DNA of 64,000 bases from Candidatus Helarchaeota archaeon (GTDB lineage: Archaea > Asgardarchaeota > Lokiarchaeia > Helarchaeales > RDOG01), in assembly GCA_019058315.1 (NCBI GenBank), contig JAHPZH010000004.1, positions 288,001 through 352,000 on the forward strand. Direction: 5' to 3'. Each line of letters starts with the position of its first letter. Within the stretch, counting starts at the first letter, position 1. The position numbers were made by a program, and so were the translations under genes. This document shows positions 6,327-23,590 of this stretch, in pieces. Under the pieces are notes generated by a model. It had not been told where the DNA came from. It was given only the letters and a program-made list of their open reading frames with translations, and did not search any database.

Positions 6327-7007
6327 ATGGTAATAATTTTTCCTAATAATAAACTTCATAATGCCAATCTAAAAATTTTAAATTCATTTTTAGAAGTGAA
6401 AAATCGTAAGAAACCCTTTAATTGTCAAAAATGTGGATTTTGTTGTTATTTTGATCCAAAAAGGGAATCAAAAGCCGGAATTACACTTCTTAAGGATGAA
6501 TATAAATTCTTTAGGAAATTAGCTGAAAAAGAGCAAATTGATATAAGATTAGATCATCGTGAGAGAGGATTCTTTTCATATTCATCTATTGATGAACCTC
6601 AATATTGTTTTTTATTTGATAAACAAAATAAGCTTTGTAAAATTTATGATAAGCGACCATTATATTGTAAACATTATCCATTATATCTTATGGATTCAAA
6701 TCCAATATTTGATAAAATTAGGATAAATCAGTCTATAATTTTTTCTTATATTCTTATTAATACAGTTTATTCTTGTAGAGAAATTAATCGTTTGTATGGA
6801 AAAAGCACAAAAATGAATTTATTTGAACTATATCTAACTTTAGATTTCTATTTCCCATCAACACTTCTAAATGATTTAAGAAAATTAGCAAAAATATATG
6901 AAAATGAATATTCAGATTTAAATGTAAAAGTAATTCTAAATTTTGAAGACTATATTGAGATTATATATAAAAATTACGTTGGAAATAAACCAGAATGGGA
7001 AATTTGA
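6327..7007 (+). CDS. YkgJ family (CxxCxxCC) cysteine-cluster protein
   Basis: FNCQKCGFCC...CFLFD...CKIYDKRPLYCKHYP signature. Confidence 0.88.
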   Translation: MVIIFPNNKLHNANLKILNSFLEVKNRKKPFNCQKCGFCCYFDPKRESKAGITLLKDEYKFFRKLAEKEQIDIRLDHRERGFFSYSSIDEPQYCFLFDKQNKLCKIYDKRPLYCKHYPLYLMDSNPIFDKIRINQSIIFSYILINTVYSCREINRLYGKSTKMNLFELYLTLDFYFPSTLLNDLRKLAKIYENEYSDLNVKVILNFEDYIEIIYKNYVGNKPEWEI

Positions 7008-7035
7008 ATAAATTTTTTCCCTCATTCAATATCAT

Positions 7036-7248
7036 TTATTTCTTCTCCCAAAAATAAAACTCGATAGCATCTCCCAGACTTTTAATCTTATTCTCAATCA
7101 AATCCTTTAACTCGGTAAGAAAATTTCTTAATTCAAAATTCTCATCAGTAATTTTTTTGCAAAAATCAACAATCTGATTATTTTTAACCCTTCTCCTGAC
7201 AAACTCTTCAAACGATAATTTCTTTTCATTTTCATCCATGTCGAACAA
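7036..7248 (-). CDS. Small coiled-coil hypothetical protein
   Basis: 70-aa ORF with plausible composition, converging on YkgJ. Confidence 0.5.
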   Translation of the reverse strand: MFDMDENEKKLSFEEFVRRRVKNNQIVDFCKKITDENFELRNFLTELKDLIENKIKSLGDAIEFYFWEKK

Positions 7249-7849
7249 CTCTTAATTATTGAGGGAAATCAAAAGTTTGACCAAATCGGGAACACTAAAG
7301 TTCTTGATAGACAAATTTACTTAACAAATGAAAATATTAAGCAACCTAATAAAGTTTGTGGAGTATCTGATAAGTAATAAGTGGAGAATCAGAGTATCTC
7401 AAAAGTATCAGAGAGTTAGAGTATTGTGAAAGTAAAACGGTAAATTTTAAAAAGAAGATTTTCTTGTTTTCTAATATATTATCTGGTTTATATAAAAACC
7501 CGACAATATATTAGTAAATCCCCAAACCACCGTTGGATCCTCAGATATTGAATTATTGAATTTCCCCTGTCACTTTTCAAAGTTAAAATTTCAAAATATG
7601 TTTCAGGACATCACAAATTTTAATTCTCAAAAACCCTAATATCATCAGATTAATTGCAAAAATTGGATATACAAACTTAATTTCATTATTTTAATTTCTC
7701 GGTTTAATTAAATCATTTTTTTTAGTTATAATAAGTATTTAATTATTTAAATAAGAATAATATCAAACAATAAATAGGTAAAATCAAAATTTTTTTTTGT
7801 CATTAATGTAAATAATAACTATTGTAATTTTTGGGAATTTGGTGAGATT

Positions 7850-9187
7850 TTGTCGAAACGATTATCATTGGAAGTAAAATCGATTAATGATTTGAAAATT
7901 CTTGATAAATACCCTCAATACTGGAAGGATATTACATCATTTTTAGTAATTAGCTCAAAAACCCTATCAATAAAAGATAAACAAGGTCTAATAAAAAGAT
8001 TAAAACAAATTAACATACCAATTCATGTTGAATCTTATTCTTGGTGGTTCACACATCCAAGAACTAAACAGAAATTATCAGATCCCGATAATAACCCAAA
8101 TTTTGAAAAAAACCCAAATTTATTATTTGCTATTCAAAATATCTCTGAAGATTTAATCTTAGAAGGATGGGAATCAACAATTCTCCATGATAAAAATTTT
8201 GATTGTATTGATAATTGGATAGGATATCAACGAAACTTGAATAAAAATTTTAGAAAAAAACAACAATCCCTAAATAAAATAAAATCTTTACGCTCAAGAT
8301 TAGTTAAAAAAGATGATGCGTGTGCTGAACTTGAGTCATTTTCCCTTCCATATATTCCAATTATCGATATTTCAGGTCATAAAGAAGAAGTAACAAATGC
8401 TATAAATGCAAATATTGAAATTATTAAATATTTCAATAATAAAAATACTCAAACATTTAAGAAGCAAGTGTGCCCATCAATAGTAATTAATTTTAAAGCA
8501 ATTGAATGTAAAAGTCTAGAAAAATTGGTAAATTTGATTAAAGATAATTTTGAAATGTGCTGGATTTGGTTCGTTGATATAGACGATAGAAAACTTCCAG
8601 AAATTGATATAAGAAAATTATGGAAATATATCAGATATCTAAATAGAGGGAGTAAAAAAATCTTTAGACTAAGATTGGGAGGATTTTTATCCCATAGATT
8701 CTTAAAAAATGAATTTCCATCAATTTGTTCTTTCATAGATGGTTGGGGTGCTTATAATTTTACACCAAATTATTATCAAGATGAAGAAGATATAACTTAT
8801 TATGGAAGAAAGAGACATGTTTTCTCCCCACAATTAGGAAGATTTGTTTCAGGCAATACTTTAAGTAAAGAGTTAGAGCAGAAAAAATGTAATTTCAAAT
8901 GTGATTGTTTTGCTTGTAAAAAACTAATTGCGGAATCAAAATTAACAATTCCAGAGATGGAGTATAAAAGAAATGAAGCTAGAAAAGAAGAGAAAAGATT
9001 GAACATAGAGTCAGTTGGTGTATCCCAAAATAAGCAATCAGAATTTTTAAGACTTCATGGTATGATATGTTTTTATAATTTATTAAAAATTAGTGATAAA
9101 GAATTCAGTAATCTTGAAAAAAAGTGGGTCAATCCAGGATTAAAAAAATGGAAAATCATAGAAAAAGAAATGAGTAGAGGTGATTAG
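7850..9187 (+). CDS. Hypothetical protein, possible TGT-like/beta-protein-like TIM barrel with CxCxxC...H Zn site
   Basis: Alternating beta/alpha pattern; CDCFAC followed later by LRLHG near the C-terminus; no DSGG motif. Confidence 0.5.
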   Translation: MSKRLSLEVKSINDLKILDKYPQYWKDITSFLVISSKTLSIKDKQGLIKRLKQINIPIHVESYSWWFTHPRTKQKLSDPDNNPNFEKNPNLLFAIQNISEDLILEGWESTILHDKNFDCIDNWIGYQRNLNKNFRKKQQSLNKIKSLRSRLVKKDDACAELESFSLPYIPIIDISGHKEEVTNAINANIEIIKYFNNKNTQTFKKQVCPSIVINFKAIECKSLEKLVNLIKDNFEMCWIWFVDIDDRKLPEIDIRKLWKYIRYLNRGSKKIFRLRLGGFLSHRFLKNEFPSICSFIDGWGAYNFTPNYYQDEEDITYYGRKRHVFSPQLGRFVSGNTLSKELEQKKCNFKCDCFACKKLIAESKLTIPEMEYKRNEARKEEKRLNIESVGVSQNKQSEFLRLHGMICFYNLLKISDKEFSNLEKKWVNPGLKKWKIIEKEMSRGD

Positions 9188-10223
9188 AATTAATCAATTA
9201 ATAGAAGAAAGTGAAGAAGATTTTAACGAAGATAATTATGATTTATTATTGATATTATTAAATAGTCTTTATCCAAAAACTATTCTAAAGACTCGTTTAA
9301 TGAAATTAAGTTGGTTTTTTTTTGAACTTGGAAATCTACCAAAGATATTAAATTTAGAAAATTACTCAATGGACTTTGAACCTCATTTACTTGGTGGAAG
9401 CGATTATGCTATTGATAATAATCTATCTATTATGGAAAATGATGGATTAATAGAAACAACACAGAGAGTATCAAACCAAGCAAATGATTATGAAGTAATT
9501 TCAATTAGAAAAGATAAACATGATGAAATTTCAGAAAATATAAAACAATATTGGATTGATAAAGAAGCAGATAAATTTATTAATTTAAATGATTTTAAAA
9601 ATTCCCTTGATATTTTTAATTCATTATTTAAAGATGATAATAGCCTGATTGGATTTTTATATAGATTAGATCCTGAAAGAACCAAGAACTCAATTATTAT
9701 TTCAAAAGTAAAGAAAATCATGACACCTGAAAAATTTAAGGATTGCATTTACAATATATTTCAAAATTTACGACCAATTTTTTCATTAACTTTGTTTTAT
9801 TCAAGAAAACAAGCGAATTCAGTAGTAAGAATTTTAAATAACGAAGAAAAAATCATTGAAATTAATACAGAATGGTTATATAATTTATCTGAAGCTTTGG
9901 TAAACCATTATTTAAAGAATGAAAATGAAATAATGAATAGAATAATAAGTAAACTAGCTGGTCAGATATCATTAAAATGTCGAACAGGAGGGTACGAACA
10001 ACTTGAGAAATATTTTGTTATTATTGAAGGATTATGGAGGTATAATTTATCGTCAGATATCCCAGTTGAATTCTTAAGACAAATAACCGTTAATCTTTTG
10101 TTTAATATTGAAAATAAACAATTATTAGAAACAGAGATTATAAATTTACAACAATTATTCAAAAAGCATGATCTTGAAATTACACCAAAAATTGACCTCT
10201 TTAAAACTTATTTACAGGTTTAG
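9180..10223 (+). CDS. Panacea/SocA (DUF4065)-like winged-helix protein with helical C-terminal extension
   Basis: KTRLMKLSWFF...FEPHLLGG...IDNNLSIMENDGLI pattern; overlaps the upstream gene by 8 bp. Confidence 0.6.
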   Translation: MIRINQLIEESEEDFNEDNYDLLLILLNSLYPKTILKTRLMKLSWFFFELGNLPKILNLENYSMDFEPHLLGGSDYAIDNNLSIMENDGLIETTQRVSNQANDYEVISIRKDKHDEISENIKQYWIDKEADKFINLNDFKNSLDIFNSLFKDDNSLIGFLYRLDPERTKNSIIISKVKKIMTPEKFKDCIYNIFQNLRPIFSLTLFYSRKQANSVVRILNNEEKIIEINTEWLYNLSEALVNHYLKNENEIMNRIISKLAGQISLKCRTGGYEQLEKYFVIIEGLWRYNLSSDIPVEFLRQITVNLLFNIENKQLLETEIINLQQLFKKHDLEITPKIDLFKTYLQV

Positions 10224-10226
10224 AAT

Positions 10227-11102
10227 TTGGATGAACGCACAAAAAGTATAAATTCATTAATTATTGACTCAGACGCCATTATCAATCTTTTTTTTGGGAC
10301 AGAAAACGCACGAAAAGACATAAAAACCATCATTAAAGATAGTGAGAATGTTTTCATCACCACTTACACAATAGGTGAGTTAAAAAGAGTCATCTTAAGT
10401 ACTTTAATAAATATTCATTATACAATCCAAAATTGGATCATTAAGGAGAAATGGGAAGATTTTAATAAAAAATTATTAATCCAGAGAAGTAGAGATATTT
10501 TTCTAAAACTATATGGAGGAAGCGAACGGAAAACTTTACGATTAAAAGAATTTTATATGTCGATATTTCTCGATTTCTTATCAGATACTTTTGATTTACC
10601 AATAAGAGATTCTAGAACTGTATTTTTAAAAAGATTAGAGAACTATATCGAGAATTTTGATGTTCTATTTATTAATGATGATTTTGAAAAAAGGAATAGT
10701 TCAATGAATTGTAATTGGCTAAATTATAAAATTCAAATAGAAAATAAGGAATTAAAATTTTATAAAAAGGGCTTTGGATGTTTAAAATTAAAATGTAATA
10801 CATTAAATGAGATATTGAAGTATTTTACATCAAATAAGGAAAGATTGCTAAAGGTTTATAAAATAAAAAATTTTAAACCAATTCCGAATTGGTATCCTAA
10901 TTTCAAAATGTTATTTAATTTATTTTTAAACAAGATGTTGGATAAAAGCTATAAAAGATTATCTTATAAATGTAAATCGTTAGGAGACTTAATTCTAATT
11001 ATCGACACTAATGAAAATGAAACTATCCTTACTTCAAATAATCGAGATTTTCAAGCTACAACTCATATTCTTGGAATCAATTTAATAATTTTTAAAAGAT
11101 GA
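10227..11102 (+). CDS. PIN-domain ribonuclease with large Cys-containing insertion
   Basis: IIDSDAII, TYTIGEL, LGDLIL and ILTSNNRDF supply the PIN acidic residues. Confidence 0.78.
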   Translation: MDERTKSINSLIIDSDAIINLFFGTENARKDIKTIIKDSENVFITTYTIGELKRVILSTLINIHYTIQNWIIKEKWEDFNKKLLIQRSRDIFLKLYGGSERKTLRLKEFYMSIFLDFLSDTFDLPIRDSRTVFLKRLENYIENFDVLFINDDFEKRNSSMNCNWLNYKIQIENKELKFYKKGFGCLKLKCNTLNEILKYFTSNKERLLKVYKIKNFKPIPNWYPNFKMLFNLFLNKMLDKSYKRLSYKCKSLGDLILIIDTNENETILTSNNRDFQATTHILGINLIIFKR

Positions 11103-11251
11103 TTGTTAATTTTAAAAATTAAATTTTATCGGCTTTTTCTAAACCCTAGATTCTCTAAAAGCTATTAGACTTGAAAAGGTATTAAGTTTAGCTCAGCTAA
11201 CCTGAAAGGTTCAAATTATTGTATGGTCGAATGTTTATAACCCAAAAATAA

Positions 11252-11686
11252 TTATTGTTGCTGGGGAATTGATTTCAAAAAAATAGCCAAATTTTCTAAA
11301 AAATTTCCAAGATAAGCAGGATTATAAAGCAATTCTTTAACTTCTTGTGCAATTTTGGGTTTATCTTTCTCTTTATCGGTAACTCCTATTGTAAAAAACT
11401 TTAAACCCCTTAAAGTATCAATCCCGACCTTTTTATAATCAAACCTTTCTTCTGCTGTAACTTCTGTTATCTTTCCCCTCTTAATCATTGCTTTGAATTT
11501 CTTTGGTTTCTCCTTTTTGACTTTCTTTATCGGTTTTTTCTTTGGTACAACTTCATCTTTTTTAATAACTTCCTCATAAGCTTTTATTTTAGTTTCAACA
11601 TGGGTTTCTACACTTTTTTTAATGTAATCTTCTGTTGATTCCGGTTCTTCTTCCTTATCCTCAAAAAAATCCCAATCATCAGGCAC
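11252..11686 (-). CDS. Hypothetical protein (acidic N-terminus, Lys-rich middle)
   Basis: 144-aa ORF overlapping the upstream gene by 8 bp. Confidence 0.65.
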   Translation of the reverse strand: MPDDWDFFEDKEEEPESTEDYIKKSVETHVETKIKAYEEVIKKDEVVPKKKPIKKVKKEKPKKFKAMIKRGKITEVTAEERFDYKKVGIDTLRGLKFFTIGVTDKEKDKPKIAQEVKELLYNPAYLGNFLENLAIFLKSIPQQQ

Positions 11687-11996
11687 TTTTATAACGCCCC
11701 ACTATATCTTTAAAGAATTGTTTATCTTCCGTACTTAAAATTAAAGCCCCTTTATTCTTTTGAAAAAAATCCATGAAATATTTAATATCTTCTTTTTTCC
11801 ATTTCTCATTTTCTTTTGTTTTGGTTTCAATCTTTTTTATATCATTGCCTAGCCCTTCCAACTCCATAAGCAACGATTTGTCATTGATATCTGCTATCAT
11901 AGTAACTTTCTCAAAATCAATCCCATTCCTTTTTAGCAATCTACGGGTTTTATTCTTTAAGACTTTATTTTCGGGATATTTTATTACAACCTTCAA
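11679..11996 (-). CDS. Hypothetical protein
   Basis: 105-aa ORF, TTG start with GGAAG upstream. Confidence 0.6.
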   Translation of the reverse strand: MKVVIKYPENKVLKNKTRRLLKRNGIDFEKVTMIADINDKSLLMELEGLGNDIKKIETKTKENEKWKKEDIKYFMDFFQKNKGALILSTEDKQFFKDIVGRYKSA

Positions 11997-12025
11997 ATTC
12001 TAACTTCCTAAAAGTTAATTAATTA

Positions 12026-12146
12026 TGATACTTAGTGTCAAATCAAGATTTAAAGCTTTCGGAAATATACGGAAACCCACAAATCCAACACTTCCCCAAT
12101 AAACTAATTGATACTAAGTGTCAAACCAAACGATACAAAGTATCAA
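12026..12146. promoter_or_regulatory. Three palindromic operator-like sites plus tandem CGGAAA motif
   Basis: TGATACTTAGTGTCAAA 12026-12042, TGATACTAAGTGTCAAA 12109-12125, CGATACAAAGTATCAA 12131-12146; ATATACGGAAA 12065-12075. Confidence 0.6.
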
Positions 12147-12252
12147 CACAAAATTACAAGTTCAAAAATTTGAATGATTTCTATATTAAGGTTTAAATCT
12201 AATTAAGATTTAAAATAAAATATTTAATCAATAAAATAAAAGAGGGTGTTAA

Positions 12253-13383
12253 ATGAATAAAACAGCACTTTTTAAAATTCTAGATAATTTAAAAACTAAA
12301 TTAGATAGCTTCTCCAAGAAGTATGATGAGACGCTTAAGAAAAACTATGAAAACTTAAGTAAACTCAGCGATATTCTTTGGGAGATCCACGAAGCTTCTA
12401 GCTATTCTTGGATTGGACATCAATCTGAAGCATACCACCTAATTGGTAATGAATTTACGATCCCTCCCCCTAGTGAGGGATTTGATATAATGTCTGGACA
12501 TCCAAGATCAGTAAATTGGAAAAGAATACCATATATTGGTATTCAACAATGGATTGAGAATAAAACAGGGTTAAATATCTCAACTATTAGAAAACAAATA
12601 ATCGAAATAATGAATGAAACCCAACAAATACAAGAAGAAATTATTACCGATTTATCTATTTTGAAAGAGTTAAACCAATATAAAACTGAAATAGCGACTT
12701 TAGACGAAATAAATAATATGAAATGGGGTGTTCCAGAATCTTATCTTGTTAAGCAAAAAAGACCAAGTAATTTTTTTACAAGAGATATGCAAGCACTTAA
12801 TCTAGGGATGAGAACTCCTCCACATATAGAATACCTAGTCAATGTGGAATCAAGTCAAACAAAAATTTATTCAATTCGAAATTTTATAAAATTAGCAAAT
12901 AGATTAATAACACAGATTAAAATTAGAGAGGATTTAGAAATCAAGGTTCAACCTACGGATTTAGAAACTTATTATAATCTTATCGAGGAGACTAAAGAAA
13001 ATTTCAGAGCCACAATCATAAAAGAACCAATTAATGAATCTGATGTTCAAGATTATTATGAAAGCTTTTTGAAATCCAATAAATTTGATTTTAACCGCGA
13101 AAAAGATCAAGTCCTTTTTTCTGAGAAATTATTTGTTCCCGACTTCACAAGTGATGAATTTAAAATGGCAATCGAAGTTAAGTTCGTAAAAGATAACAAA
13201 ACTAAATCTGTTGTTATTGAAGGAATGAGTGCAGACTTGAAACCTTACTCTAAAAAGTGGGACAAAATCCTATACATTGTATATGATAAGGGTGGTAATA
13301 TTAACGATGGTAGGAAATTTACAAAAGATTTTAACGAAGAAACAGACGAATTAAGGACAGTATGTTTAGTAATTAAACATTAA
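12253..13383 (+). CDS. Helical N-terminal domain fused to C-terminal PD-(D/E)XK nuclease (REase DpnII/MboI-like)
   Basis: ESDVQD...FVPDF...IEVKFV...ADLKPY...YIVYD motif set. Confidence 0.78.
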   Translation: MNKTALFKILDNLKTKLDSFSKKYDETLKKNYENLSKLSDILWEIHEASSYSWIGHQSEAYHLIGNEFTIPPPSEGFDIMSGHPRSVNWKRIPYIGIQQWIENKTGLNISTIRKQIIEIMNETQQIQEEIITDLSILKELNQYKTEIATLDEINNMKWGVPESYLVKQKRPSNFFTRDMQALNLGMRTPPHIEYLVNVESSQTKIYSIRNFIKLANRLITQIKIREDLEIKVQPTDLETYYNLIEETKENFRATIIKEPINESDVQDYYESFLKSNKFDFNREKDQVLFSEKLFVPDFTSDEFKMAIEVKFVKDNKTKSVVIEGMSADLKPYSKKWDKILYIVYDKGGNINDGRKFTKDFNEETDELRTVCLVIKH

Positions 13384-13399
13384 ATAGGAGAAACTATAT

Positions 13400-13978
13400 T
13401 TGGAAACACATAGCAAATATCTGTTATCATTTATTATAGTTCTTATTACTATAATCATTATAATATCATTAACCTTCTTCTCAACTTTTATCCTAATATC
13501 TGATCGGGAATGTGGTGTTACTATAAATGGAATCTCAATAATTAACATTGACAAAAAAATATTCCTATTTAATATAATTTCTCCTATTTCATCGCTTTTA
13601 ATAGCAATCATTTTACCTTTCTTTATCTTAAAATATCAGACCGAAAGAGAAAATAATGATAAAAAACAACTTGCAAATTTCATTTTTAACCAAGAAAAAC
13701 AATCAATAAATAATATGATTAAAGAATTTCATCCTTTATATGAAAGACATATCTTAAAACATACACCTACAACTATTTCGGTTGAATCAAAATTCCAAGA
13801 AGCTAAATTTAGCATTTCTCGTTGGAATATTTTAATATCTAAAGGATTATTTATCTATTTATCAAAAAAAGATACGCTTTTCAACATATATCAAAAAATC
13901 GAGGATTTCAATGTATCCACACCATTGAAAAAACTGAATAAAATAAACGACATTAAGATTGAATTTGATAAATTATGA
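13400..13978 (+). CDS. Hypothetical protein with two N-terminal TM helices
   Basis: Two hydrophobic segments then a soluble helical domain; GGAG upstream. Confidence 0.6.
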   Translation: METHSKYLLSFIIVLITIIIIISLTFFSTFILISDRECGVTINGISIINIDKKIFLFNIISPISSLLIAIILPFFILKYQTERENNDKKQLANFIFNQEKQSINNMIKEFHPLYERHILKHTPTTISVESKFQEAKFSISRWNILISKGLFIYLSKKDTLFNIYQKIEDFNVSTPLKKLNKINDIKIEFDKL

Positions 13979-14269
13979 AATTTATTCTATAACTTTTTTT
14001 GAATACTTTTGAATAATAGTATGGTAAAAAAGTCTGAAATAGTTGAAAATAAGCCAATTTCTCTAAAAAACTTATCTTCTTACTCGTAAGCTTCCAAATT
14101 TCGTATTTTGGCGATTTTTCCAATAGAAATAAGGGGGTTTTTGAGAAAATTTACTTAAAAAAAATAAACTAAATACAGGAAAGAAAAAGTAAAATCAAAA
14201 AAGAAAAAACTTAAAATTAGTGATAGGTTTATTCAAAATTCTTATCTTGAAAACAAGATTAACTCTAAA

Positions 14270-16105
14270 TTATTTAAACATTAACTGAAAATATTCACTT
14301 GTTTCATTTCCAAAAATGTCTACGACGGTTAAAACTACTGTATAACTTCCTGCATTCTCATATTTATGCCTTATTTTAGTTTTCGCTGTTTTTATTATTT
14401 TTCTTCCCGAACCAATTTGTCTAAATGAATAATCACTTGCTCTAAATAATTTTTCTTCGTTATAGTCCCAATCTATTGCCCAGAAATCTATTAAATCTAA
14501 TGATTCTTCATCTTTTAAATCCAGACCATAAAGAGTTGTATGATAATTCGAATGAAATCTTATAAATTCGATATCAATTGTTAGATTAATTGGATTGATA
14601 GACTGTCGAAATTCTAAGAATGGTAATTCAGAAAAATGATGTTCATTTTCTTCCTCATCATTAATTAAAGATTGAGGAATAATTCTCAGTTCTACTTCTA
14701 TTTTTTGATCTTCTTGGAATAATTTTTTAAAGAAACCAACTTCCATAAAATATTCCCAACCCAAAATTATCAATTTATTTTTATTTAAACTCTTGACTTC
14801 TTCAATTGCATTTTGAATTTCTTTTGGAGAAATTATTGTATCAATACCACCGATATGGATATATGCATCGTTTATTTCGCCATGTAAGTGATCGTAACCA
14901 TCCAAATAAGAACCTTTAAATTGTTTCAAGATATACTCATAATATTTTTTATGGGTTTCGCCAATGTATTCTTCTGATTTTAGTTTCAAAAAGAGAAGAT
15001 GCTTGTTATACATCTCTAAATTTAATAATTGAAATGGGAAACTCGTAGATTTCGAATTTAAGAGAATTCGTTTTCTAATTTCATTTATAGAATATCTACT
15101 AATATCAACTGCTATCCATTTTCGCCCTAATTCTTGACCTGTTGCAACAGTTGTTCCTGACCCGCAAAAAAAATCTGCAATGATGTCATTTTTATTAGAA
15201 CATTGACGAATGATTCTATCAAGTAAAGAAATAGAATTTTCTGTGGGGTAAAGAGTCTTTTTTGTTTTTTCATATCCTGGTATATCAATCCAAATATTAT
15301 CATCATCAGCTTCATATTCAATAGGATCTGCAGTTTTTCGTTTCTTTTTTTCAAATTTTTCAAAAAATTTTGCGTTATTGCTCTTTCGATATAAAAATAA
15401 ACTGTCAACTTGAATAATTAAATGTTTTTGTCGTTCTAATGCTTTATCTGATACTGGTTTATAAATTCTTCTTACAAGATATTCACAAATAAAGTTATTC
15501 TCACCAAAAATTTCATCTAAAATTACTTTAATATAATGCCCATAATGATAATCAAATCTTACAGCCATAAAACCAATATCTTTTAATAATTTATAGATGA
15601 GAAAAGCTCTTTCATAAAACCATTGACATAAATTTTGGATATGATTTGAACCAGTCCATATATTTTTGTATGCAATATCCTTTATTGGACTTGGAAATTG
15701 TTTAATCGTTTTTTTAGTGCCTAATCCAATAGGAATATCAATATATTCATTAGCTCCAGTATAAAAAGGAGGATCAATATATACGAATTGAATTTTATTG
15801 CGGAATTTTCCCTCTAAACTCTTTAATACATATAAATTATCTCCCCAAATGAGTAAATTTTTCCAATTTTTTAAATAATCTTCTTCTTTTTCTTCTTTTT
15901 TTTTCTCATCAGACTCGAAATACTGCATTAAAGTTCTTGGAACTATTTTTTTTATCTTCTTTTTCTTTGATCTCTTCTGTTTTTGTTTTTGCAATAGTGA
16001 ATCATCATCATTTTTAGAGAGATATGTTTCTAAAAATTGTAAGTTTAATTTTGGAATTTCTCGAATATTTTTTTTCCATTTTAATTTTAAAGGGAATTCA
16101 TTCAT
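14270..16105 (-). CDS. Type III R-M Mod-like beta-class N6-adenine DNA methyltransferase (motifs IV/I intact, TRD nearly absent)
   Basis: IWGDNL, YIDPPF (IV), YPTEN, ADFFCGSGTT (I). Only ~26 aa between LYRKS and DNIW. Long C-terminal extension ending VVDIFGNET. Confidence 0.88.
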   Translation of the reverse strand: MNEFPLKLKWKKNIREIPKLNLQFLETYLSKNDDDSLLQKQKQKRSKKKKIKKIVPRTLMQYFESDEKKKEEKEEDYLKNWKNLLIWGDNLYVLKSLEGKFRNKIQFVYIDPPFYTGANEYIDIPIGLGTKKTIKQFPSPIKDIAYKNIWTGSNHIQNLCQWFYERAFLIYKLLKDIGFMAVRFDYHYGHYIKVILDEIFGENNFICEYLVRRIYKPVSDKALERQKHLIIQVDSLFLYRKSNNAKFFEKFEKKKRKTADPIEYEADDDNIWIDIPGYEKTKKTLYPTENSISLLDRIIRQCSNKNDIIADFFCGSGTTVATGQELGRKWIAVDISRYSINEIRKRILLNSKSTSFPFQLLNLEMYNKHLLFLKLKSEEYIGETHKKYYEYILKQFKGSYLDGYDHLHGEINDAYIHIGGIDTIISPKEIQNAIEEVKSLNKNKLIILGWEYFMEVGFFKKLFQEDQKIEVELRIIPQSLINDEEENEHHFSELPFLEFRQSINPINLTIDIEFIRFHSNYHTTLYGLDLKDEESLDLIDFWAIDWDYNEEKLFRASDYSFRQIGSGRKIIKTAKTKIRHKYENAGSYTVVLTVVDIFGNETSEYFQLMFK

Positions 16106-18716
16106 TTTTATTCTCCAAAATGAACTTTGCCATTTCCAAAAATGGAATCTTTTGAAATGTATTGTAAAATAAATTCTCTTCTACAAACAGATAATTCCAG
16201 TTTTCACCCGCTTTTCTAACCCAATCTTCAGCAACTTTTCTCTTGAGTTTAGTACTTTGTTTATCAATGAATACCTCTCCTTTTGTTTCAATAATATAAT
16301 ATTGATTGTTTGTTGTTAAAACAAAAAAATCTGGTATATATCTTTTAAGAAAACCCTTTTCGTTATAATATAAATAAAATTTCATCTGCTTACTGACTTT
16401 ACAGAAACTTTTAACATCATTATCAGTATCTAAATATAATGCAAATTCTCTCTCTAACGCACTATCAAATGAGATATAATTAAAAATTGTCTTTTTAAAA
16501 CTCTCAACATTTTTACTCGTGAATTGGTGTCCACTTTCAGAAATTTTATAAATTTTTCCAGATTTTTTAAATTCGGTTTCTTTAATGTTTACATCAGAAA
16601 AAATCCTAGTCACTATGTCATAAATTTTCTTAATTACTAAAGGGTGATTTAATTTTAACATGATATTTTCATCTAAAAAGTCAATAGACCTTTCAAAGAA
16701 ATGATTTTTTAAATATTTTTTGAATTTAGGTAAGAAGGGTTGATAAGAATTTGAGATATGGAATTTTTTGAAAAAATGTTTTGTTAAATGGACTATATAA
16801 TCATTAATATCTTGAAAAAATGAAAAATCGATGTTTAATTCTCTTATAATTTCATCATTTCCATATTCCTTTTCATAGTATTTAGGCAGTTGAATTTTTA
16901 TTTCATCAATTTTCATTACTTGTTTTTCTAATTTCTCCCATGGAAAATCTTCTAAAGAGTTAATATGATAAAAAAAACCTCCTGACAATATTGGAATCTC
17001 AATGTCCAATTCTTTTTTTGAATGTAAAGGAAAAATTAATATTTCACTTGGTCTGAAGTCACCTATTTTACTAGTTTCAATATCAAAGAAGGTAAAATCA
17101 TCTTCACTTATACCTTCCTTCTTCAAAGCATTCACTATTAATGGTTCAAACCGTTCATGTTCAATTACCGTTAAATATTCATCTTGATCTTGAAATTGTT
17201 TCCTTAGTCCTCTTCCAAGAGTCTGTTCAACAAGAATATTCGATTCATAGGATCTTAATGGAACGATTACCTTAACACTTTTTACATCCCATCCTTCTTT
17301 CAACATCATAACACTTACAATAATTTTATAAGGATTAGTTGATTCATCGATAGTTTCAGCTGCATCCATAAGGTCGTCTATTTCCTCATCTAAGATTTCT
17401 CCTGCATTAACTCCTTTTTCTATCGTATGAATTAACAATACATTTCTTTTCGTATAGTTAGGATATTCTTCAACTATAAACTTCCAAACTTCATCAGCAT
17501 GTTTATTTTTATCTGTCATAATAAAAAGTATTGCTTTTTTATTTAAGGGCGTTAATAATTCTTCATATTCTTCGAGAATTCTAATACCTGCTTGAATCTG
17601 ATATTGGTTTATATATGCAAAATTATCAGATGATACTTCAGGAATATGAGTCAATTTTCCTATTTTAGGAATTTTCACAATTTTGTTATGAATAGCCTTA
17701 GAAAGAGGATAGTCTATAATGATATGTTCAAAGAATTTAGTCTGATCAGTCTGATATCTTGGCGTTGCAGTAAAATCTAATTGGAATTTAATATTATTTA
17801 AGTTATTACGGGTTTTTAGAGCTTTATTAATTTCTATAATGATTCTATTCCATGCTAAATATTCCGAATGGACATGATGAGCTTCATCATTAATAACCAT
17901 TATATTATCTCTAGTGCTTACACTTGAAAATAAAGGATTTTCAGTTGAAGATTTATTTATTAAATCATTTTTATCTATTGAATAATCCGAACTAGACATC
18001 AAACTAGCTTTCTTTAATATAGCAGGTATTGAATCTTGTTTTGAATATAGTTGATGAACATTAGTTAAGAAAATAACTCCTTTTTTATTTATTGGAGTAA
18101 TTTCAGAGCGATAGATAATTTGGATATCAAAGAACTTTTCCCAACCTTTTGGTATGAAAGGATACTTACGAAAAATAGAATTTGCACTGGAAATTGGTAA
18201 AAAATCTTTTTTTAATCTTTTATAAACAATCTTATTTGGAGCTATGACAAGAAAAGTATTAGCTAATCTATCACATATAGGTTCTTTATTTATAAAATTA
18301 AAATAACTCCAAATAATAGCAAGAACCATAATAAAAGTTTTCCCAGAGCCAGTTGCCATTTTAAAGCAATATTTAGGAAATTCGGATTGTTCGGCTTTTT
18401 TATCATATATTTGAGCTAAACTATCATCCCAAAATTTATTAAAAATATCTAGAATGTCTTTAGCTTCTAAAATTTCAACAATATAAATTAGAGTTTCTAT
18501 AGCTAATTGTTGAATTGGATAAAAAGAAAAAATATTTCCATCTGTTGTCTCATGATCAGTTTCAAACCAAAATCCTAAGAGTTGTTTAGTGGTTTTAGTT
18601 ACGCCTTTGTACCTTTCTTCCCAATTTGCATCGGAGTTTCTCCATTCAATTACTTTTTCTAATAATTGTTGAACTATTGGAAATTGGGAAGATGTCAAAT
18701 AATCATTACTATTCAA
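16098..18716 (-). CDS. Type III R-M Res subunit (SF2 helicase + PD-(D/E)XK nuclease)
   Basis: KMATGSGKT, INDEAHH, FTATP, LKEGWDV, QTLGRGLR; C-terminal YIPDF...IIETKG. Confidence 0.92.
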   Translation of the reverse strand: MNSNDYLTSSQFPIVQQLLEKVIEWRNSDANWEERYKGVTKTTKQLLGFWFETDHETTDGNIFSFYPIQQLAIETLIYIVEILEAKDILDIFNKFWDDSLAQIYDKKAEQSEFPKYCFKMATGSGKTFIMVLAIIWSYFNFINKEPICDRLANTFLVIAPNKIVYKRLKKDFLPISSANSIFRKYPFIPKGWEKFFDIQIIYRSEITPINKKGVIFLTNVHQLYSKQDSIPAILKKASLMSSSDYSIDKNDLINKSSTENPLFSSVSTRDNIMVINDEAHHVHSEYLAWNRIIIEINKALKTRNNLNNIKFQLDFTATPRYQTDQTKFFEHIIIDYPLSKAIHNKIVKIPKIGKLTHIPEVSSDNFAYINQYQIQAGIRILEEYEELLTPLNKKAILFIMTDKNKHADEVWKFIVEEYPNYTKRNVLLIHTIEKGVNAGEILDEEIDDLMDAAETIDESTNPYKIIVSVMMLKEGWDVKSVKVIVPLRSYESNILVEQTLGRGLRKQFQDQDEYLTVIEHERFEPLIVNALKKEGISEDDFTFFDIETSKIGDFRPSEILIFPLHSKKELDIEIPILSGGFFYHINSLEDFPWEKLEKQVMKIDEIKIQLPKYYEKEYGNDEIIRELNIDFSFFQDINDYIVHLTKHFFKKFHISNSYQPFLPKFKKYLKNHFFERSIDFLDENIMLKLNHPLVIKKIYDIVTRIFSDVNIKETEFKKSGKIYKISESGHQFTSKNVESFKKTIFNYISFDSALEREFALYLDTDNDVKSFCKVSKQMKFYLYYNEKGFLKRYIPDFFVLTTNNQYYIIETKGEVFIDKQSTKLKRKVAEDWVRKAGENWNYLFVEENLFYNTFQKIPFLEMAKFILENKNE

Positions 18717-18718
18717 AT

Positions 18719-20518
18719 TTATGTCCCCTTTTCTAATTTATAACATGCACCACATATATCGTAAATCTCTAATTTAATTAATTTAATCTCTTTTTCTAAT
18801 GTTATTTTTATTAATTTTTCAAGATTTAGTACATCAATCTTACGATGAAATATTTTTGAAAAGACAATATTACCTCTATTATCTAATAGTTGTAAGATCC
18901 AATGGCTTAATCTTCCAAAAGTTAATTTAGTATGATCAAATTCTATTATCTTTAATGAAATGATTTGATCATTCAAGAAAAAAAAATCTTCAATTTCACA
19001 TTTAAATTCAGAATTAATTATATCCATATTCACTTCCACAACTGGAGCTTTTAAAAATATCCCATTAGTTTTCGACTTTTCCCATATTTGTTCGAGTTTC
19101 CAGAACTGAACTTTTTGTCTCTTATTAGATAGTTCGCTTTTTAACTGATCCCATTTCTCATCTTCAAGAAAATCAGGTGCAATAATGATAAAAGATTCAA
19201 ATATGTGTTTAAAATCTCCAAATTCGGAAATACATATTTCTAATTCATGAGCCGTAAACGTGTGGTGTGGCGGTGAAATATGTAGAAGAGAATTATTGTA
19301 AATTGCTGAAAATATTAATGAATTTGAGATTACTTTTGCATTTAAGAGTTTGCATATAAATTCTATGAATCCATTTTCAAAATACTCTTCTATATAATCA
19401 TATTGATATGAACCTATGGCAATTGACTCAATTGAAAATTTATTCGTTATAAAAAAGTTTTGACATAACGAAATGCCTAACATTCTGGGATCAATGCCTA
19501 CATAATTTCTATTTAACTCGGTAGTTACTTTTGCACAAGTTCCAGATCCTACGAAAATATGCAATAGAATTCCATTTTCTTCCGAAAAGCTTTGTATTAT
19601 TCGTTCATAAACTTTATCTTGTAATTCCCAACCCAAATGAGATAGGGCGAAAGCTTCTAAATCAAGCCAGTTATTATCAACAATATGACCTTGTTTTGGT
19701 TCAACCCAATAAACCGGTTTTCCTTCTGTATTTAACTTAATAGTCCCATTGGCACATCTTTTGTCTATGGTAGCTTGTTTGAATTTCCAATGACTGCCAA
19801 CAGGTGGTGCAATTTTATGTTCTTTTCCGTTAATTTTAAATATACGGGGAGGTCCTTGTCCTTTTGAATGCATTGTGTGCCAATATCCGCCAGATTCTTT
19901 TTCTTTATAACTTGGAATTATTTTGGGATTTTCACTTTTAGTATATATAAAAAAGCAAGAAGTAACTTCTTTTGTAAGAGAATTTGAATCATCAGAGTTT
20001 TTTTGGTAAAATGGAGATTGAATAAAAACCTCATTTAAAAACTTATCATAGCCCAAAGTGTTATCTAATAAAATTTTTAAGTAATGTCTGTACCTTCCAA
20101 TATATTTAATAATAAAGAAACCTTGTTCGCTTAAAAGATCCCAAGTTTCTTTTATTAAAGACTCCAAATTCGTGAAATATTCTTCTATCGAACCTTTAAA
20201 ATAAACTTCTGCTGGCAGACCTATTGGATTATAAAAATTATGAAATTTATTTGGGTCATATAGATTTGGTCTTTTTAAAATAGATGCTTTGTCCTCACTT
20301 TCCTCTTTATAAGGTAAATCAATAAGTATGATTTGATAATCTTTTGGTATTTTACATCGTTCATTAGAAAATTTTAATCCTTTAATAACAGTTATTAAAT
20401 TATGACCCCATAGGAGGAAATTTTGTTTTTTATCAAATTTCTTTGAAAATATTTTTATTAGTGGAGGTAAATTATTTAATCCTGCCAAATTTTGTTTATT
20501 TTTGTTCCAATTTAGCAT
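18719..20518 (-). CDS. Second Mod-like subunit: TRD present, catalytic motifs degenerate
   Basis: LWGHNL, IDLPY (for DPPY), no PTQKP-like motif, HIFVGSGT (for DFFxGSGT). ~85-aa TRD-like insert with PPVGSHW. Confidence 0.8.
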   Translation of the reverse strand: MLNWNKNKQNLAGLNNLPPLIKIFSKKFDKKQNFLLWGHNLITVIKGLKFSNERCKIPKDYQIILIDLPYKEESEDKASILKRPNLYDPNKFHNFYNPIGLPAEVYFKGSIEEYFTNLESLIKETWDLLSEQGFFIIKYIGRYRHYLKILLDNTLGYDKFLNEVFIQSPFYQKNSDDSNSLTKEVTSCFFIYTKSENPKIIPSYKEKESGGYWHTMHSKGQGPPRIFKINGKEHKIAPPVGSHWKFKQATIDKRCANGTIKLNTEGKPVYWVEPKQGHIVDNNWLDLEAFALSHLGWELQDKVYERIIQSFSEENGILLHIFVGSGTCAKVTTELNRNYVGIDPRMLGISLCQNFFITNKFSIESIAIGSYQYDYIEEYFENGFIEFICKLLNAKVISNSLIFSAIYNNSLLHISPPHHTFTAHELEICISEFGDFKHIFESFIIIAPDFLEDEKWDQLKSELSNKRQKVQFWKLEQIWEKSKTNGIFLKAPVVEVNMDIINSEFKCEIEDFFFLNDQIISLKIIEFDHTKLTFGRLSHWILQLLDNRGNIVFSKIFHRKIDVLNLEKLIKITLEKEIKLIKLEIYDICGACYKLEKGT

Positions 20519-20749
20519 ATTTTGCCTCTTTTACGTTATTCCCTCAATATATATTAACTTTTATTTAACTTAAAAATCAAAATTTATTATGTTTCAATGA
20601 TTATGAAAATTAATTATTTAGATTTAACTATCAATTAAAATTATATGAAAAGATTTTACCAAATCCTTAAATTTGTTTTTAAATTACTTATAAATAATTC
20701 TTAACTCAATAAGTATAGAATTAACATTCTATTTAAAGGAGGAAATTAG

Positions 20750-21019
20750 TTGTCTGATAGAGGAATTGAAGTAATTAATCAATTAATTGAGACTGGAGAA
20801 AAATTAGCAAAAAAAGAAAAAGTAACCGAAACTGAATATGCTCACTGGTATTTTAACTGCAATTTTGTAGTGAAAGGTTTTTATGTATCTAAAAAAGAGC
20901 TAAATGTAATTATGACTGAATTTAATGAGCAATTCTCAATGGCAAATAATAATATGAAAATTAAAATGATAATTGGCTTATTATTATCATTGAAAGATCG
21001 GAAGGAAAAGAAACTTTAA
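20750..21019 (+). CDS. Small hypothetical protein
   Basis: 89 aa, AGGAGG RBS before the TTG start. Confidence 0.65.
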   Translation: MSDRGIEVINQLIETGEKLAKKEKVTETEYAHWYFNCNFVVKGFYVSKKELNVIMTEFNEQFSMANNNMKIKMIIGLLLSLKDRKEKKL

Positions 21020-21045
21020 ATCAGATTAATAAGTTAAACATTTAC

Positions 21046-22206
21046 TCACTTATTCAATAACTCTAATTCTAAATTATGAATTTTAACGTCTTTCTCTTTT
21101 ATTTGCTTTTCTAATTCATTAATTTTAGCTTCATCAGTCCGTACAAAAAGCATGACCGCATTTTCCCACTTTAAAAATTGTTCATAAAGCCAACTATCCG
21201 ATTTAATTAAGTCATTGTAATGATCGATTTGCTTATCATAGTGAAAGGTAATCAATTTTAAGTACCAATCATCTAATTTCGGTTTTACATATAATCTAAT
21301 GGAAGTTTCCATGTATCTACGAAAACAATTTGAAGAAAGGGATTCTCTCTTAATTAAATTTAATTTATTGTGAAAATAATTTAACGTATCATTGAAATTT
21401 TTTTCTGAAATTCGTTTCCCATGCCTAGTTAAAAATAATTGTTGTAAATCCAACTCTCTTAAATCCTCTAAATTAAAAAACAACTTCAATTTCTGCTCTA
21501 TTTCTTTTGTAATAAACAGTTTCTTTAACCCCACCATTCTTTTAGAACTCATGAACTCAACTTCCCCTTTTTTTGTCGTTATGTGGTATCTTTCTTGAAA
21601 TTTATTAAGAAAATAATTTCCATTAGTAATTTTATTTAAAATATCATCAATTCGTAACCCTGTTTGACTTAGAAATAAATGTAATAACGCATAATCTTTA
21701 GACCTAAAGCATAAATGGATTTTTCTGTTCAATTTTTTATCCACAAGAACAAAGTTCTTTTCTGAACCATATTTATTTGAATCAATATACCCTTCTATTC
21801 TTTTATTAATAGAAGAAAAATAACTCATTACCCTAGATTGTATCGTGTTCAATATGGTAGTTTCCCCAAACTTCCTCACACCTTTAATTTTAGAATCTCT
21901 AGAAATTTCTAATAAATGGTTAATAAAAGCAATGAAAATTTCACTCCTTTTAGTATCTTCTAATTCTGCAAATCTTTCAATATCCGAATTATGATTATTC
22001 TCTAAAAATTGATTAAACAAGTTCAAATAGTCTATATATTGCCGAAATTTGAATTTATGAATATTTTTTGTGAATTTGCTTCTTGAATGGTATTGACTTA
22101 CTCTTATTCTTAACCAAGAATTCACCTTTTCAGGAAACTTTTTATAAACTCCAAACCTTCTAGCCCAAGTATCCCTGTTATTTTCAATAATTTTATCAAT
22201 TGACAT
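21046..22206 (-). CDS. Second tyrosine recombinase-family protein
   Basis: QTGLRIDD (R), SNCFRR (HxxR with H>N), TFH...DHY (H, Y). Probable start MSIDK at 22206; ORF track start 22254. Confidence 0.78.
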   Translation of the reverse strand: MSIDKIIENNRDTWARRFGVYKKFPEKVNSWLRIRVSQYHSRSKFTKNIHKFKFRQYIDYLNLFNQFLENNHNSDIERFAELEDTKRSEIFIAFINHLLEISRDSKIKGVRKFGETTILNTIQSRVMSYFSSINKRIEGYIDSNKYGSEKNFVLVDKKLNRKIHLCFRSKDYALLHLFLSQTGLRIDDILNKITNGNYFLNKFQERYHITTKKGEVEFMSSKRMVGLKKLFITKEIEQKLKLFFNLEDLRELDLQQLFLTRHGKRISEKNFNDTLNYFHNKLNLIKRESLSSNCFRRYMETSIRLYVKPKLDDWYLKLITFHYDKQIDHYNDLIKSDSWLYEQFLKWENAVMLFVRTDEAKINELEKQIKEKDVKIHNLELELLNK

Positions 22207-22211
22207 TTTAG

Positions 22212-22439
22212 TTACTCCCTTTTTTTCATCAAAGGTATTATTTGAATTATACAACTTGGATTCAAATAAATTGGTTGTTTCTTATCCGGTGTACTGATTT
22301 CTACGAATTTTACATCCCCTATTACCCTAATTTTATCAAAAAAAGCATAGTAAGTCATTCCTTCTATTTGAAAAATGTATTGCATGTCTTTAATCAGACC
22401 GCCTTCTTGCTCATCTAATAACTTTAAATACTCACTCAT
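22212..22439 (-). CDS. Small beta-rich hypothetical protein (Sm/SH3-like pattern)
   Basis: 75 aa; FVEI...IYLNPSCIIQI pattern; operonic with the recombinase. Confidence 0.55.
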   Translation of the reverse strand: MSEYLKLLDEQEGGLIKDMQYIFQIEGMTYYAFFDKIRVIGDVKFVEISTPDKKQPIYLNPSCIIQIIPLMKKRE

Positions 22440-22443
22440 TAAA

Positions 22444-22689
22444 TCACCTCAAAAAATTAGTTATTTTGGATTGTTTCGAAACCGATTTTTTAAGTTTCGC
22501 TTGTTTTGGAACAAATGAAAATAAGGAGTCGAAGAATTGCGGATTTAAACAAACTGATAAATGATAAATGTTGTTTTTATATTGCTTACAATAACCTTTA
22601 TTTCCTTTATTATCAAAACAACGACACCCTTTACAAACTTTCAAGCTAGGTCTAAAACCCTCAGTTCCGTACCAATCGATCTTGCTCAT
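22444..22689 (-). CDS. Small Cys-rich (Zn-finger-like) protein
   Basis: CKGCRC...YC...VC; GGAG upstream. Confidence 0.6.
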   Translation of the reverse strand: MSKIDWYGTEGFRPSLKVCKGCRCFDNKGNKGYCKQYKNNIYHLSVCLNPQFFDSLFSFVPKQAKLKKSVSKQSKITNFLR

Positions 22690-23084
22690 GGGAAATTTTC
22701 TCCTTATTTCCGTCTACGACTAATATACGGGAAATTTCAATTTATTAATTTTCTGAAATATTATCGGGTTTTCATGTAAATCCGATAATATGTTAGCAAT
22801 CAAACAAATCCTTGCTCTTTTGTCAAAATACCCAAGATATCAAACTTCTAACCAACCTCCCAGGTTTTTTGAACGGTTATTCGGTGGTAGCGATAGAGGA
22901 GGAAATGGTCTATGAAAGGAGAAAAAGAGTGGAAAAGACCTTTACGACATTGAAATGAGCCATTGTTATTAACCTTTTCATTTATTTATTTAAAAATTAG
23001 AAATAAATTGATTTCAAAATTAAACTATAAGATTTAATAGTCAATTATTTCAAATATTAAATTTGTATATACTTGGTGGGATAA

Positions 23085-23393
23085 ATGTCGATTGAAGATG
23101 CAATTGAGGAAAGTATGGTTAAACAAAAGAAAAAGGAACAAGAAGAATTACCTTGGAAAATGTGTTTTTGTGTAATCAGCGTAATAATAGTAATAATTGT
23201 TTCTGTTTGGGCGGGAGTTTATTATGCTGATGACCAATCAAAATCTGATTTAGTCTGGTTATTAACATTCGCTGGTTTATCTGGATTCCTTGGAGATATT
23301 ACTGTTGGAGAATGGTTTATAATTGCTTATGCAATACATCCCCAAACTGCAATGACAGCATTATTCTTTGTTTTTGATTTATTTGGAGGTTAG
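23085..23393 (+). CDS. Small membrane protein
   Basis: 102 aa with 2-3 hydrophobic segments; GGTGG upstream. Confidence 0.65.
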   Translation: MSIEDAIEESMVKQKKKEQEELPWKMCFCVISVIIVIIVSVWAGVYYADDQSKSDLVWLLTFAGLSGFLGDITVGEWFIIAYAIHPQTAMTALFFVFDLFGG

Positions 23394-23398
23394 ATAAT

Positions 23399-23590
23399 AT
23401 GGCAGAAGAATATAGAGTAATCGAAGTAAGTTTAGGCGGAATGAGAGGACCAGAAATAAATATTAAAAAGTGGGACGATTTTATAGCCGCAATTAAATTA
23501 AACAATATCAAAACAGTATTTAAAACAGGGAAAACTTTTTTCTTTCATTTAGGCGGTGCCGAAATAAAGTGCAAATATAAGAATGCGTAA
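23399..23590 (+). CDS. Small hypothetical protein, tandem paralog 1
   Basis: Shares EEY.V.E...IK.WDDFI.AIKLNN.KTVFK.GK.FFF.L.G with 23605-23796. Confidence 0.75.
   Translation: MAEEYRVIEVSLGGMRGPEINIKKWDDFIAAIKLNNIKTVFKTGKTFFFHLGGAEIKCKYKNA

Follow-up and report, generated by a model that had tools for sequence, protein, structure and literature searches.

A proposed pseudoenzyme-enzyme methyltransferase pair in Type III-like restriction systems of Asgard archaea

The Asgard archaeon Candidatus Helarchaeota carries a restriction-modification operon with two different modification (Mod) genes, modA and modB, on either side of a single restriction gene, res. The operon lies in a 64,000-nucleotide stretch of contig JAHPZH010000004.1 (assembly GCA_019058315.1, positions 288,001 to 352,000). 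We refer to this whole stretch as the window; its G+C content is ~26%. The three minus-strand open reading frames (ORFs) together occupy 14270-20518 of the window. A gap of 2 bp separates the modA stop from the res start, and res shares 8 bp (ATGAATGA) with modB; judged from this spacing, modA, res and modB form one tightly coupled operon. PADLOC labels all three gene products as Type III, and Res as REase_III. The Pfam family N6_N4_Mtase covers both Mod proteins (ModA 3.4e-16, ModB 5.2e-33), far above chance. The positions of the genes and their motifs are collected in Table 1.

Table 1. Genes and sequence features of the modA-res-modB operon, and two related loci in other Asgard genomes (SF2, superfamily 2; NTD and CTD, N- and C-terminal domains; MTase, methyltransferase; TRD, target recognition domain).
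Feature	Location	Position	Strand	Description
modA	window	18719-20518	-	599 aa, Type III Mod paralog; NTD, MTase fold, TRD block and CTD kept; catalytic motifs eroded
ModA motif IV	window	20309-20320	-	DLPY in place of (D/N/S)PP(Y/F/W); read from DNA
ModA helix GRYRHYLKILLD	window	20063-20098	-	predicted core of the ModA-ModB interface
ModA TRD block	window	19676-19933	-	residues 196-281, 86 aa; between motif VIII and the NNW element/motif X site
ModA motif X site	window	19610-19639	-	HLGWELQDKV in place of YPTENS; read from DNA
ModA motif I remnant	window	19538-19561	-	HIFVGSGT; read from DNA
res	window	16098-18716	-	872 aa, TTG start; Type III-like restriction subunit, SF2 ATPase and C-terminal PD-(D/E)xK nuclease
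Res GSGKT motif	window	18336-18350	-	read from DNA, intact
Res DEAH motif	window	17877-17888	-	read from DNA, intact
Res PD...ExK motif	window	16281-16334	-	read from DNA, intact
modB	window	14270-16105	-	611 aa; motifs IV, X and I intact; CTD with PKD-like end; TRD block deleted
ModB motif IV	window	15764-15775	-	DPPF, catalytic pocket; read from DNA
ModB linker	window	15302-15379	-	26 aa, residues 243-268, at the TRD position; between motif VIII and the DNIW element
ModB motif X	window	15233-15250	-	YPTENS; read from DNA
ModB motif I	window	15149-15175	-	DFFCGSGTT; read from DNA
Decayed Heimdallarchaeota locus	L014	8001-11231		ModA 582 aa (NLTH, MDNKN, most eroded), then a 208-aa Res fragment, IS66 transposase at the contig end
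Single-Mod mod-res operon	L087, G303:C1	7110-11509		Mod 621 aa; 1.4-Mb Asgard genome

Res matches the Pfam families ResIII (3.2e-20) and RE_endonuc (4.9e-09). It also matches the NCBIfam family BPTD_3080 at 3.4e-78, with a score of 263.6 bits that lies under the 800-bit cut-off of that family.

The two Mod proteins are only distant paralogs, 20-25% identical to each other. ModB is the more conventional in its catalytic motifs: it is recognised by PADLOC as MTase_III (6.5e-67), and phmmer matches it to the Mod subunit of EcoP15I (1.4e-16). Its motifs IV and I are 202 residues apart, within the range of the Asgard ModB type (199-206), and its CTD comprises 250 aa. The DPPF, YPTENS and DFFCGSGTT-type motifs are invariant across ModB-type proteins. 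The corresponding motif IV-to-I distance in ModA is 255 residues, and it is here that the TRD block resides. The AlphaFold (AF2) model of ModA has a predicted local distance difference test score (pLDDT) of 77 and a predicted template modelling score (pTM) of 0.77. Its best Foldseek matches are the Type III Mods 6k0w, 4zcf (EcoP15I) and 7dsu (Mbo45V), aligned over ~560-600 columns. Because this match to solved Type III Mods is nearly full length, ModA is a complete Mod-like protein and no fragment.

Much of this arrangement had been noticed in a preliminary description of the locus, made from the sequence and its ORFs. That description gave the operon coordinates, the gap and the overlap, called the Res motifs intact, and assigned DLPY, HIFVGSGT, a lost PTQKP segment and a TRD-like region to ModA, with DPPF, DFFCGSGTT and a stretch of about 26 aa at the TRD position in ModB. 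On re-reading the DNA, all of these proved exact.

How far does the system conform to Type III? The motif order of a beta-class Mod (DPPF, then YPTENS, then DFFCGSGTT) is present in ModB, and the fold of ModA is closest to Type III Mods. Res combines SF2 ATPase motifs with a C-terminal PD-(D/E)xK nuclease, and gene spacing places mod and res in one operon. However, recognition and catalysis do not reside in one Mod: as judged from the motifs, the TRD block and the catalytic residues are on separate proteins. In its components the system resembles Type III, yet by its sequence it departs from the defining feature of a single Mod. As a class, Type III enzymes also cut DNA in an ATP-dependent manner, require two unmethylated sites in inverse orientation, and hemimethylate their sites on one strand.

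The undivided form of the enzyme, taken as the ancestral type, is seen in single-Mod relatives. ModB homologs number in the thousands, and the listed single-Mod relatives (574-690 aa) come from Thermoplasmata, Micrarchaeota, Parvarchaeota and several bacterial phyla. In an alignment (A3) these relatives combine DPPF, a TRD block, YPTENS and FxGSGTT in one protein. Their TRD block is clearly homologous to that of ModA, with the elements GxW.H...GQG, PPxGxHWKFxQ..ID, G.P.YWV and D.NW.DI. Motifs IV and I are 247-298 residues apart in most of the listed relatives and 210-217 in three shorter ones. Two loci were inspected, those of the Cuniculiplasma and Firestonebacteria relatives (L054 and L055), and both are plain two-gene mod-res operons; full-length identity between the Cuniculiplasma Res and the window Res is 33% (E 1e-118).

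Because the relatives have everything in one protein, the window pair is best described by reciprocal loss: ModA keeps the TRD block, and ModB keeps all but that block. The preliminary description had proposed such a loss, and comparison with the intact single-Mod relatives now bears it out at the sequence level. It had also hesitated over the activity of ModB, which has YPTENS in place of YPTQKP. YPTENS is normal for the family, being its motif X in the intact single-Mod relatives too, and that caveat is therefore removed.

A word-based search with ModA found 11 proteins including the query, and every named source was Asgard (Hel-, Prometh-, Sigyn-, Heimdall- and Odinarchaeota). When 1.84 billion representatives were searched exhaustively with a profile, 78 matches fell below 1e-30, with a sharp switch at ~1e-60; canonical enzymes with all motifs lie just below it. 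In the top 31 matches (E ~1e-60 or better), motif IV is eroded in 31 of 31, motif X is absent wherever the region is present, and the TRD block is nearly invariant. The preliminary description had named ModA orthologs with intact catalytic motifs as something that would contradict it; the 31 matches checked include none. The motif IV position never has a canonical sequence; it reads DIPY, ELPY, DLPA, NLTH, DLPI, DLPV, DLS., DIS. or the like. Motif I decays further than it does in the window, to GNES, GSDA, MDNKN, VRNEK or SEIGQ, and in many orthologs the glycine loop is destroyed. An alignment of the ModA family (A1) nevertheless has 26 invariant columns, 23 of them inside the TRD block. No part of the family is more strongly conserved than the TRD block, and we propose it as the DNA-reading element.

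The ModA family was seen in Asgard archaea only, and wherever context is readable it adjoins or is fused to a TRD-less ModB. The converse also holds, for all ModB-clade members with readable context adjoin or are fused with a ModA module. There are four complete modA-res-modB loci, the window and L009, L010/L011 and L012, whose ModA proteins are 57%, 54% and 34% identical to that of the window. The gene order is thus kept across Hel-, Prometh- and other Asgard contigs, and the search for independent loci with the same reciprocal losses that had been suggested at the outset was successful. Three partial loci (L013, L048 and L049) have modA then res and are cut at the contig end. The pairing idea was put to the test on a divergent TRD-less ModB from Hermodarchaeota (P0025), and the expected ModA neighbour was found. 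Directly upstream is a gene for a 342-aa ModA-like protein, 37% identical to ModA, with DLPP at motif IV and a conserved TRD block; this pair has no res.

In other genomes the two modules form one polypeptide of 763-859 aa, with a ModA-like N-half and a ModB-like C-half in which the catalytic motifs are again invariant. A search of 400 Asgard species genomes found this fused form in one Asgard family, where 20 of the 22 genomes have it, and in a single genome from the same class as the window's genome. The full-length split ModA occurred in the window's genome only. A ModB-based search of the same genomes returned the same ORFs again; the extra ModB-type matches were cut by contig ends or lay on a 3.2-kb contig too short for neighbours. 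Beyond the 22-genome family, fused ModA::ModB was found in several other lineages. A model of one fused member (pLDDT 82, pTM 0.82) has a disordered linker, residues 352-376, between the modules. No Res-like ORF was present within 7 kb of the fused genes in nine loci, and from this context the fused form is probably an orphan chromosomal methyltransferase. The ModA CTD (~240 aa) follows the same division: in all loci with readable context it is present with Res, and absent from the Res-less adjacent and fused forms. Proteins of 706-834 aa (L040-L047) were considered as further fusions and rejected, as alignment identified them as ordinary Mods that carry ~390 aa of unrelated sequence at the N terminus. 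Among 40 relatives of the same class as the window's genome, a ModA search gave weak matches at the level of motif I only, and the system is not shared vertically with these near relatives.

Selection acts most strongly where the reading function is proposed to lie. Ratios of non-synonymous to synonymous substitution rates (dN/dS) were calculated by region from ten pairs of fused genes with dS <1.5. The TRD block has a dN/dS of 0.06, the catalytic half 0.12, the N-half scaffold 0.22, the CTD 0.33 and the eroded post-TRD region 0.36. For split ModA genes, one close pair gave 0.26, and the adjoining Res 0.16. The suggested check for dN/dS <1 thus gave a supporting result, in the split ModA pair and above all in the TRD block of the fused form. 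Catalytic residues that are lost throughout a family under purifying selection (here 0.06-0.36) are what is looked for in a pseudoenzyme partner, and the ModA sequences have this pattern.

These data bear on an alternative in which modA is a functionless, decaying duplicate and the locus is a res-modB system with an upstream relic. The catalytic motifs of ModA are certainly eroded, and the Heimdallarchaeota locus of Table 1 is clearly decaying, with its truncated res beside an IS66 transposase. However, the modA frame is open at full length, also in orthologs down to 33% identity; the dN/dS of ModA is low, the invariant columns run family-wide and the ModA model is confident; and the fusions with ModB are conserved throughout a genus. 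The preliminary description had argued against simple decay from the full-length frames, and the selection data and conserved orthologs strengthen its argument. We consider a decaying relic highly improbable.

The history of the pair was examined in a quick maximum-likelihood tree (LG+G4, with support from the Shimodaira-Hasegawa-like approximate likelihood ratio test, SH-aLRT), the base of which is an unresolved trichotomy that leaves the sister status of ModA and ModB open. It contains three clades: the canonical relatives (support 98), the ModA modules (100) and the ModB modules (100). Branching within the ModA clade broadly parallels that within the ModB clade, in that the Odin pair, the P0033/P0134/P0137 group and the placement of P0009 near the split forms recur in both. 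Split and fused forms are interleaved, and in most cases ModA has a longer terminal branch than the ModB paired with it. The tree fits a single origin for each module type, joint inheritance of the two modules, and several events of fusion or fission.

Do the two proteins bind each other? A complex of ModA 1-370 with ModB 1-365 was predicted with a score of 0.82, against 0.00 for the best of three controls; as a rough benchmark, calculated with our own alignment, 58 of 80 solved complexes attain this score, as do 2 of 110 mismatched pairs. The prediction runs share at least 93% of contacts, and the partner pLDDT is at least 71. The contacts of lowest error join ModA 145-149 to ModB 189-194, which belong to equivalent helices of the two proteins (RYRHYLK and YHYGHYIKV). 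The predicted interface is a pseudo-two-fold one between the methyltransferase domains. Modelling of the complex had been recommended in the preliminary description, and for its ModA-ModB part the model supports binding. The fusions and the complex prediction both point the same way.

Taken together, the data lead us to propose that ModA and ModB are an obligate pseudoenzyme-enzyme heterodimer that replaces the usual Mod homodimer of a Type III-like system. We give this reading a probability of roughly 0.65. ModA would be a pseudo-methyltransferase that has kept its fold, dimer interface, TRD block and CTD, and it would read the DNA site and dock Res. The Res-docking role fits because the ModA CTD tracks the presence of Res. 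ModB, with the S-adenosylmethionine (SAM)-binding and catalytic motifs, would flip and methylate the target base, probably adenine. Res would serve as motor and nuclease, cutting unmethylated DNA as in EcoP15I, in a complex that by analogy may have the stoichiometry ModA1-ModB1-Res1. The same ModA/ModB pair would also act without Res, as adjacent genes or as a fused polypeptide.

Several observations weigh against the proposed heterodimer. The complex score may mirror likeness to solved beta-class dimers, including EcoP15I Mod2, and not this particular pair. The TRD block is highly conserved even in comparison with bacterial relatives, so the seat of specificity differences is hard to place. 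The ModA of the window, moreover, retains the Asp, Pro and Tyr of motif IV (D..PY), the FxGSG loop and the motif II Asp, and this copy may still bind SAM or even be active. This last point leads to the alternative that both Mods are active, each on a different strand or site, in the manner of two-methyltransferase Type IIS or two-HsdM Type I systems; Type I systems with two different active methyltransferase subunits are known (PMC5100572). However, ModA is without motif X, its orthologs have A, I, V or H for the motif IV aromatic residue, and several have a destroyed glycine loop while being conserved elsewhere, which is the signature of a pseudoenzyme family. From these sequences the window ModA has likely lost its methyltransferase activity, and we regard two active Mods as improbable.

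A more serious challenge comes from TRD-less enzymes that stand alone. One Asgard genome of 1.4 Mb has an intact mod-res operon (L087, Table 1) whose sole Mod has no TRD block and a motif IV-to-I spacing of 203 aa; a search of that genome for a ModA-like gene gave no match, which makes the operon a natural point of comparison on the autonomy of short-TRD Mods. In another Asgard family, 30 of 135 genomes encode TRD-less relatives of ~370 aa, and the three flanks inspected contain no ModA gene. These relatives (L084-L086 and ~27 others) are stand-alone methyltransferases of ~360-390 aa, 40-44% identical to the ModB core; they lack both the CTD and the TRD block, and their motif X reads PTQKH. 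Small beta-class enzymes without a large TRD are also among the solved structures, and Type II enzymes such as M.MboIIA and M1.HpyAVI function without one.

Since TRD-less enzymes of the wider family apparently work alone, autonomy of ModB is a live rival. ModB would then be a homodimeric methyltransferase that uses its CTD or other loops to locate the site, and ModA an accessory that couples Res to DNA or tunes activity. The ModB clade itself speaks differently from the wider family, as every member with readable context has its ModA module adjoining or fused. Because the fused form persists without Res, the ModA module must serve methylation and not restriction alone, and so is not merely a restriction accessory. 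Moreover, no region of the fused genes is under tighter constraint than their ModA-type TRD block. We consider an autonomous ModB unlikely, though it is the alternative to be taken most seriously, and we favour the obligate ModA-ModB heterodimer.

If the heterodimer is extended to all these loci, a wider proposal follows, which we hold probable with slightly less confidence. There would be an Asgard family of obligate heterodimeric DNA methyltransferases, in each of which a pseudoenzyme with the TRD reads and a catalytic partner without it writes. The family would have arisen once, when a canonical Type III Mod was duplicated and the copies underwent reciprocal loss. It would now take three forms: a three-gene restriction system, an adjacent gene pair and, in 20 genomes of the 22-genome family described above (Hodarchaeota-type by contig names), a fused orphan enzyme. 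It would give METTL3-METTL14 and MTA1-MTA9 their first counterpart among prokaryotes, and would amount to a natural separation, at the level of genes, of the two tasks divided between the EcoP15I subunits. The conservation of the fused form over one Asgard family raises the possibility of a housekeeping DNA-methylation mark there.

The surroundings of these genes are varied. Just downstream of the window operon, on the plus strand, a 376-aa ORF (12253-13383) has a DpnII/MboI-type restriction endonuclease domain (Pfam 1.8e-12). No recognisable methyltransferase lies beside it, and the next ORF (13400-13978, 192 aa) is without a Pfam match. Upstream of modA, a minus-strand ORF of 402 aa (21046-22254) has a faint tyrosine-recombinase match (Phage_integrase, E 0.008), which suggests that a mobile defence island may harbour the operon. 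A search for long flanking repeats in 7000-23500 (seed 12, minimum 20 nt) found none, only weak AT-rich matches.

In the fused locus from the window's class (L053, G282:C57, 3143-8250), the gene for a ModA::ModB protein of 778 aa is followed by a dCTP-deaminase-like ORF of 214 aa and then by a second N6_N4 methyltransferase of 733 aa, which may be another defence cluster. In two genomes of the 22-genome family (f16), a UPF0047 gene comes after the fused gene, and one of the two also has a major facilitator superfamily (MFS) transporter gene before it. Directly downstream of the Hermodarchaeota pair (L056, 9772-11052), a 426-aa ORF has an N-terminal CxxC pattern and no Pfam match; its product is a candidate partner nuclease. 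ORFs of 421-424 aa lie beside the Odin fusions; they are alike among themselves and rich in hydrophobic and Thr/Ser stretches. A nuclease shared by the Res-less forms was considered and rejected, as the Hermodarchaeota ORF is unrelated to those beside the Odin fusions.

Among characterized systems, the closest comparison is with EcoP15I (Mod2Res1, PDB 4zcf). Its Mod is likewise of the beta class, built from an NTD, a methyltransferase domain and a CTD, with the TRD lying between motifs VIII and X, and its Res joins an SF2 ATPase to a PD-(D/E)xK nuclease. Its Mod dimerizes through the NTD and methyltransferase core, as predicted for ModA-ModB, and one protomer reads while the other methylates, as we propose by analogy for ModA and ModB. 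One subunit cannot do both jobs, according to the EcoP15I authors (PMC4490356). By contrast, EcoP15I has two identical Mod chains from one gene upstream of res, whereas here two paralogs with fixed reciprocal losses flank res; its TRD is ~120 aa, that of ModA ~86 aa. The EcoP15I structure suggested that reading and methylating need separate subunits in beta-class methyltransferases, which is hard to test in a homodimer; here the two subunits have two genes. If our proposal is correct, reading and writing can be mutated, swapped or expressed independently, and relatives rejoin both in one chain. A separable reader subunit would also offer a practical means of directing a methyltransferase or a Type III nuclease to new sites.

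The canonical YPTENS-type Mod-Res operons of Thermoplasmata, DPANN archaea and bacteria are closer in sequence. Their Mods are 43-47% identical to ModB and have the TRD block of ModA and the same CTD, and their Res belongs to the same family as the window Res, at the full-length identity given above. They differ in having a single Mod gene with all motifs and the TRD, and no second Mod. The small beta-class Type II enzymes M.MboIIA, M1.HpyAVI and M.RsrI resemble the ModB core in lacking a large TRD. Unlike ModB, they are homodimers with no pseudoenzyme partner and no Res, and ModB has its CTD in addition.

Two non-identical methyltransferase subunits in one restriction complex do have a prokaryotic precedent. 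Our literature search, with REBASE and subscription journals outside its scope, found no account of a hetero-Mod Type III system or of a prokaryotic pseudo-methyltransferase partner. The nearest case is that of Type I systems with two types of HsdM. There, specificity comes from a separate S subunit and both HsdM proteins are active, one producing N6-methyladenine (m6A) and the other N4-methylcytosine (m4C) (PMC5100572).

The closest parallel in principle is eukaryotic. A 2020 review of beta-class enzymes gives METTL3-METTL14 and MTA1-MTA9 as its sole heterodimers, both eukaryotic, and describes METTL14 as having a motif IV eroded to EPPL and supporting substrate binding for its active partner (PMC7544214). 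METTL3-METTL14 and the ciliate MTA1-MTA9 thus resemble ModA-ModB in pairing an active subunit with a paralog of eroded motif IV. They differ in belonging to the MT-A70 family, in their RNA or ApT DNA targets, in their separate DNA- or RNA-binding modules, and in having no TRD in the dead subunit. The two Mods of the window did not match MT-A70 (PF05063), PF01555 being their sole Pfam match at E up to 0.1, and the Foldseek match of ModA to MTA1c is weak (3.8e-4). Because the family is N6_N4_Mtase and not MT-A70, the parallel with METTL3-METTL14 is convergent and not ancestral. If our proposal holds, the dead-partner solution of the eukaryotic m6A writers arose independently in prokaryotes.

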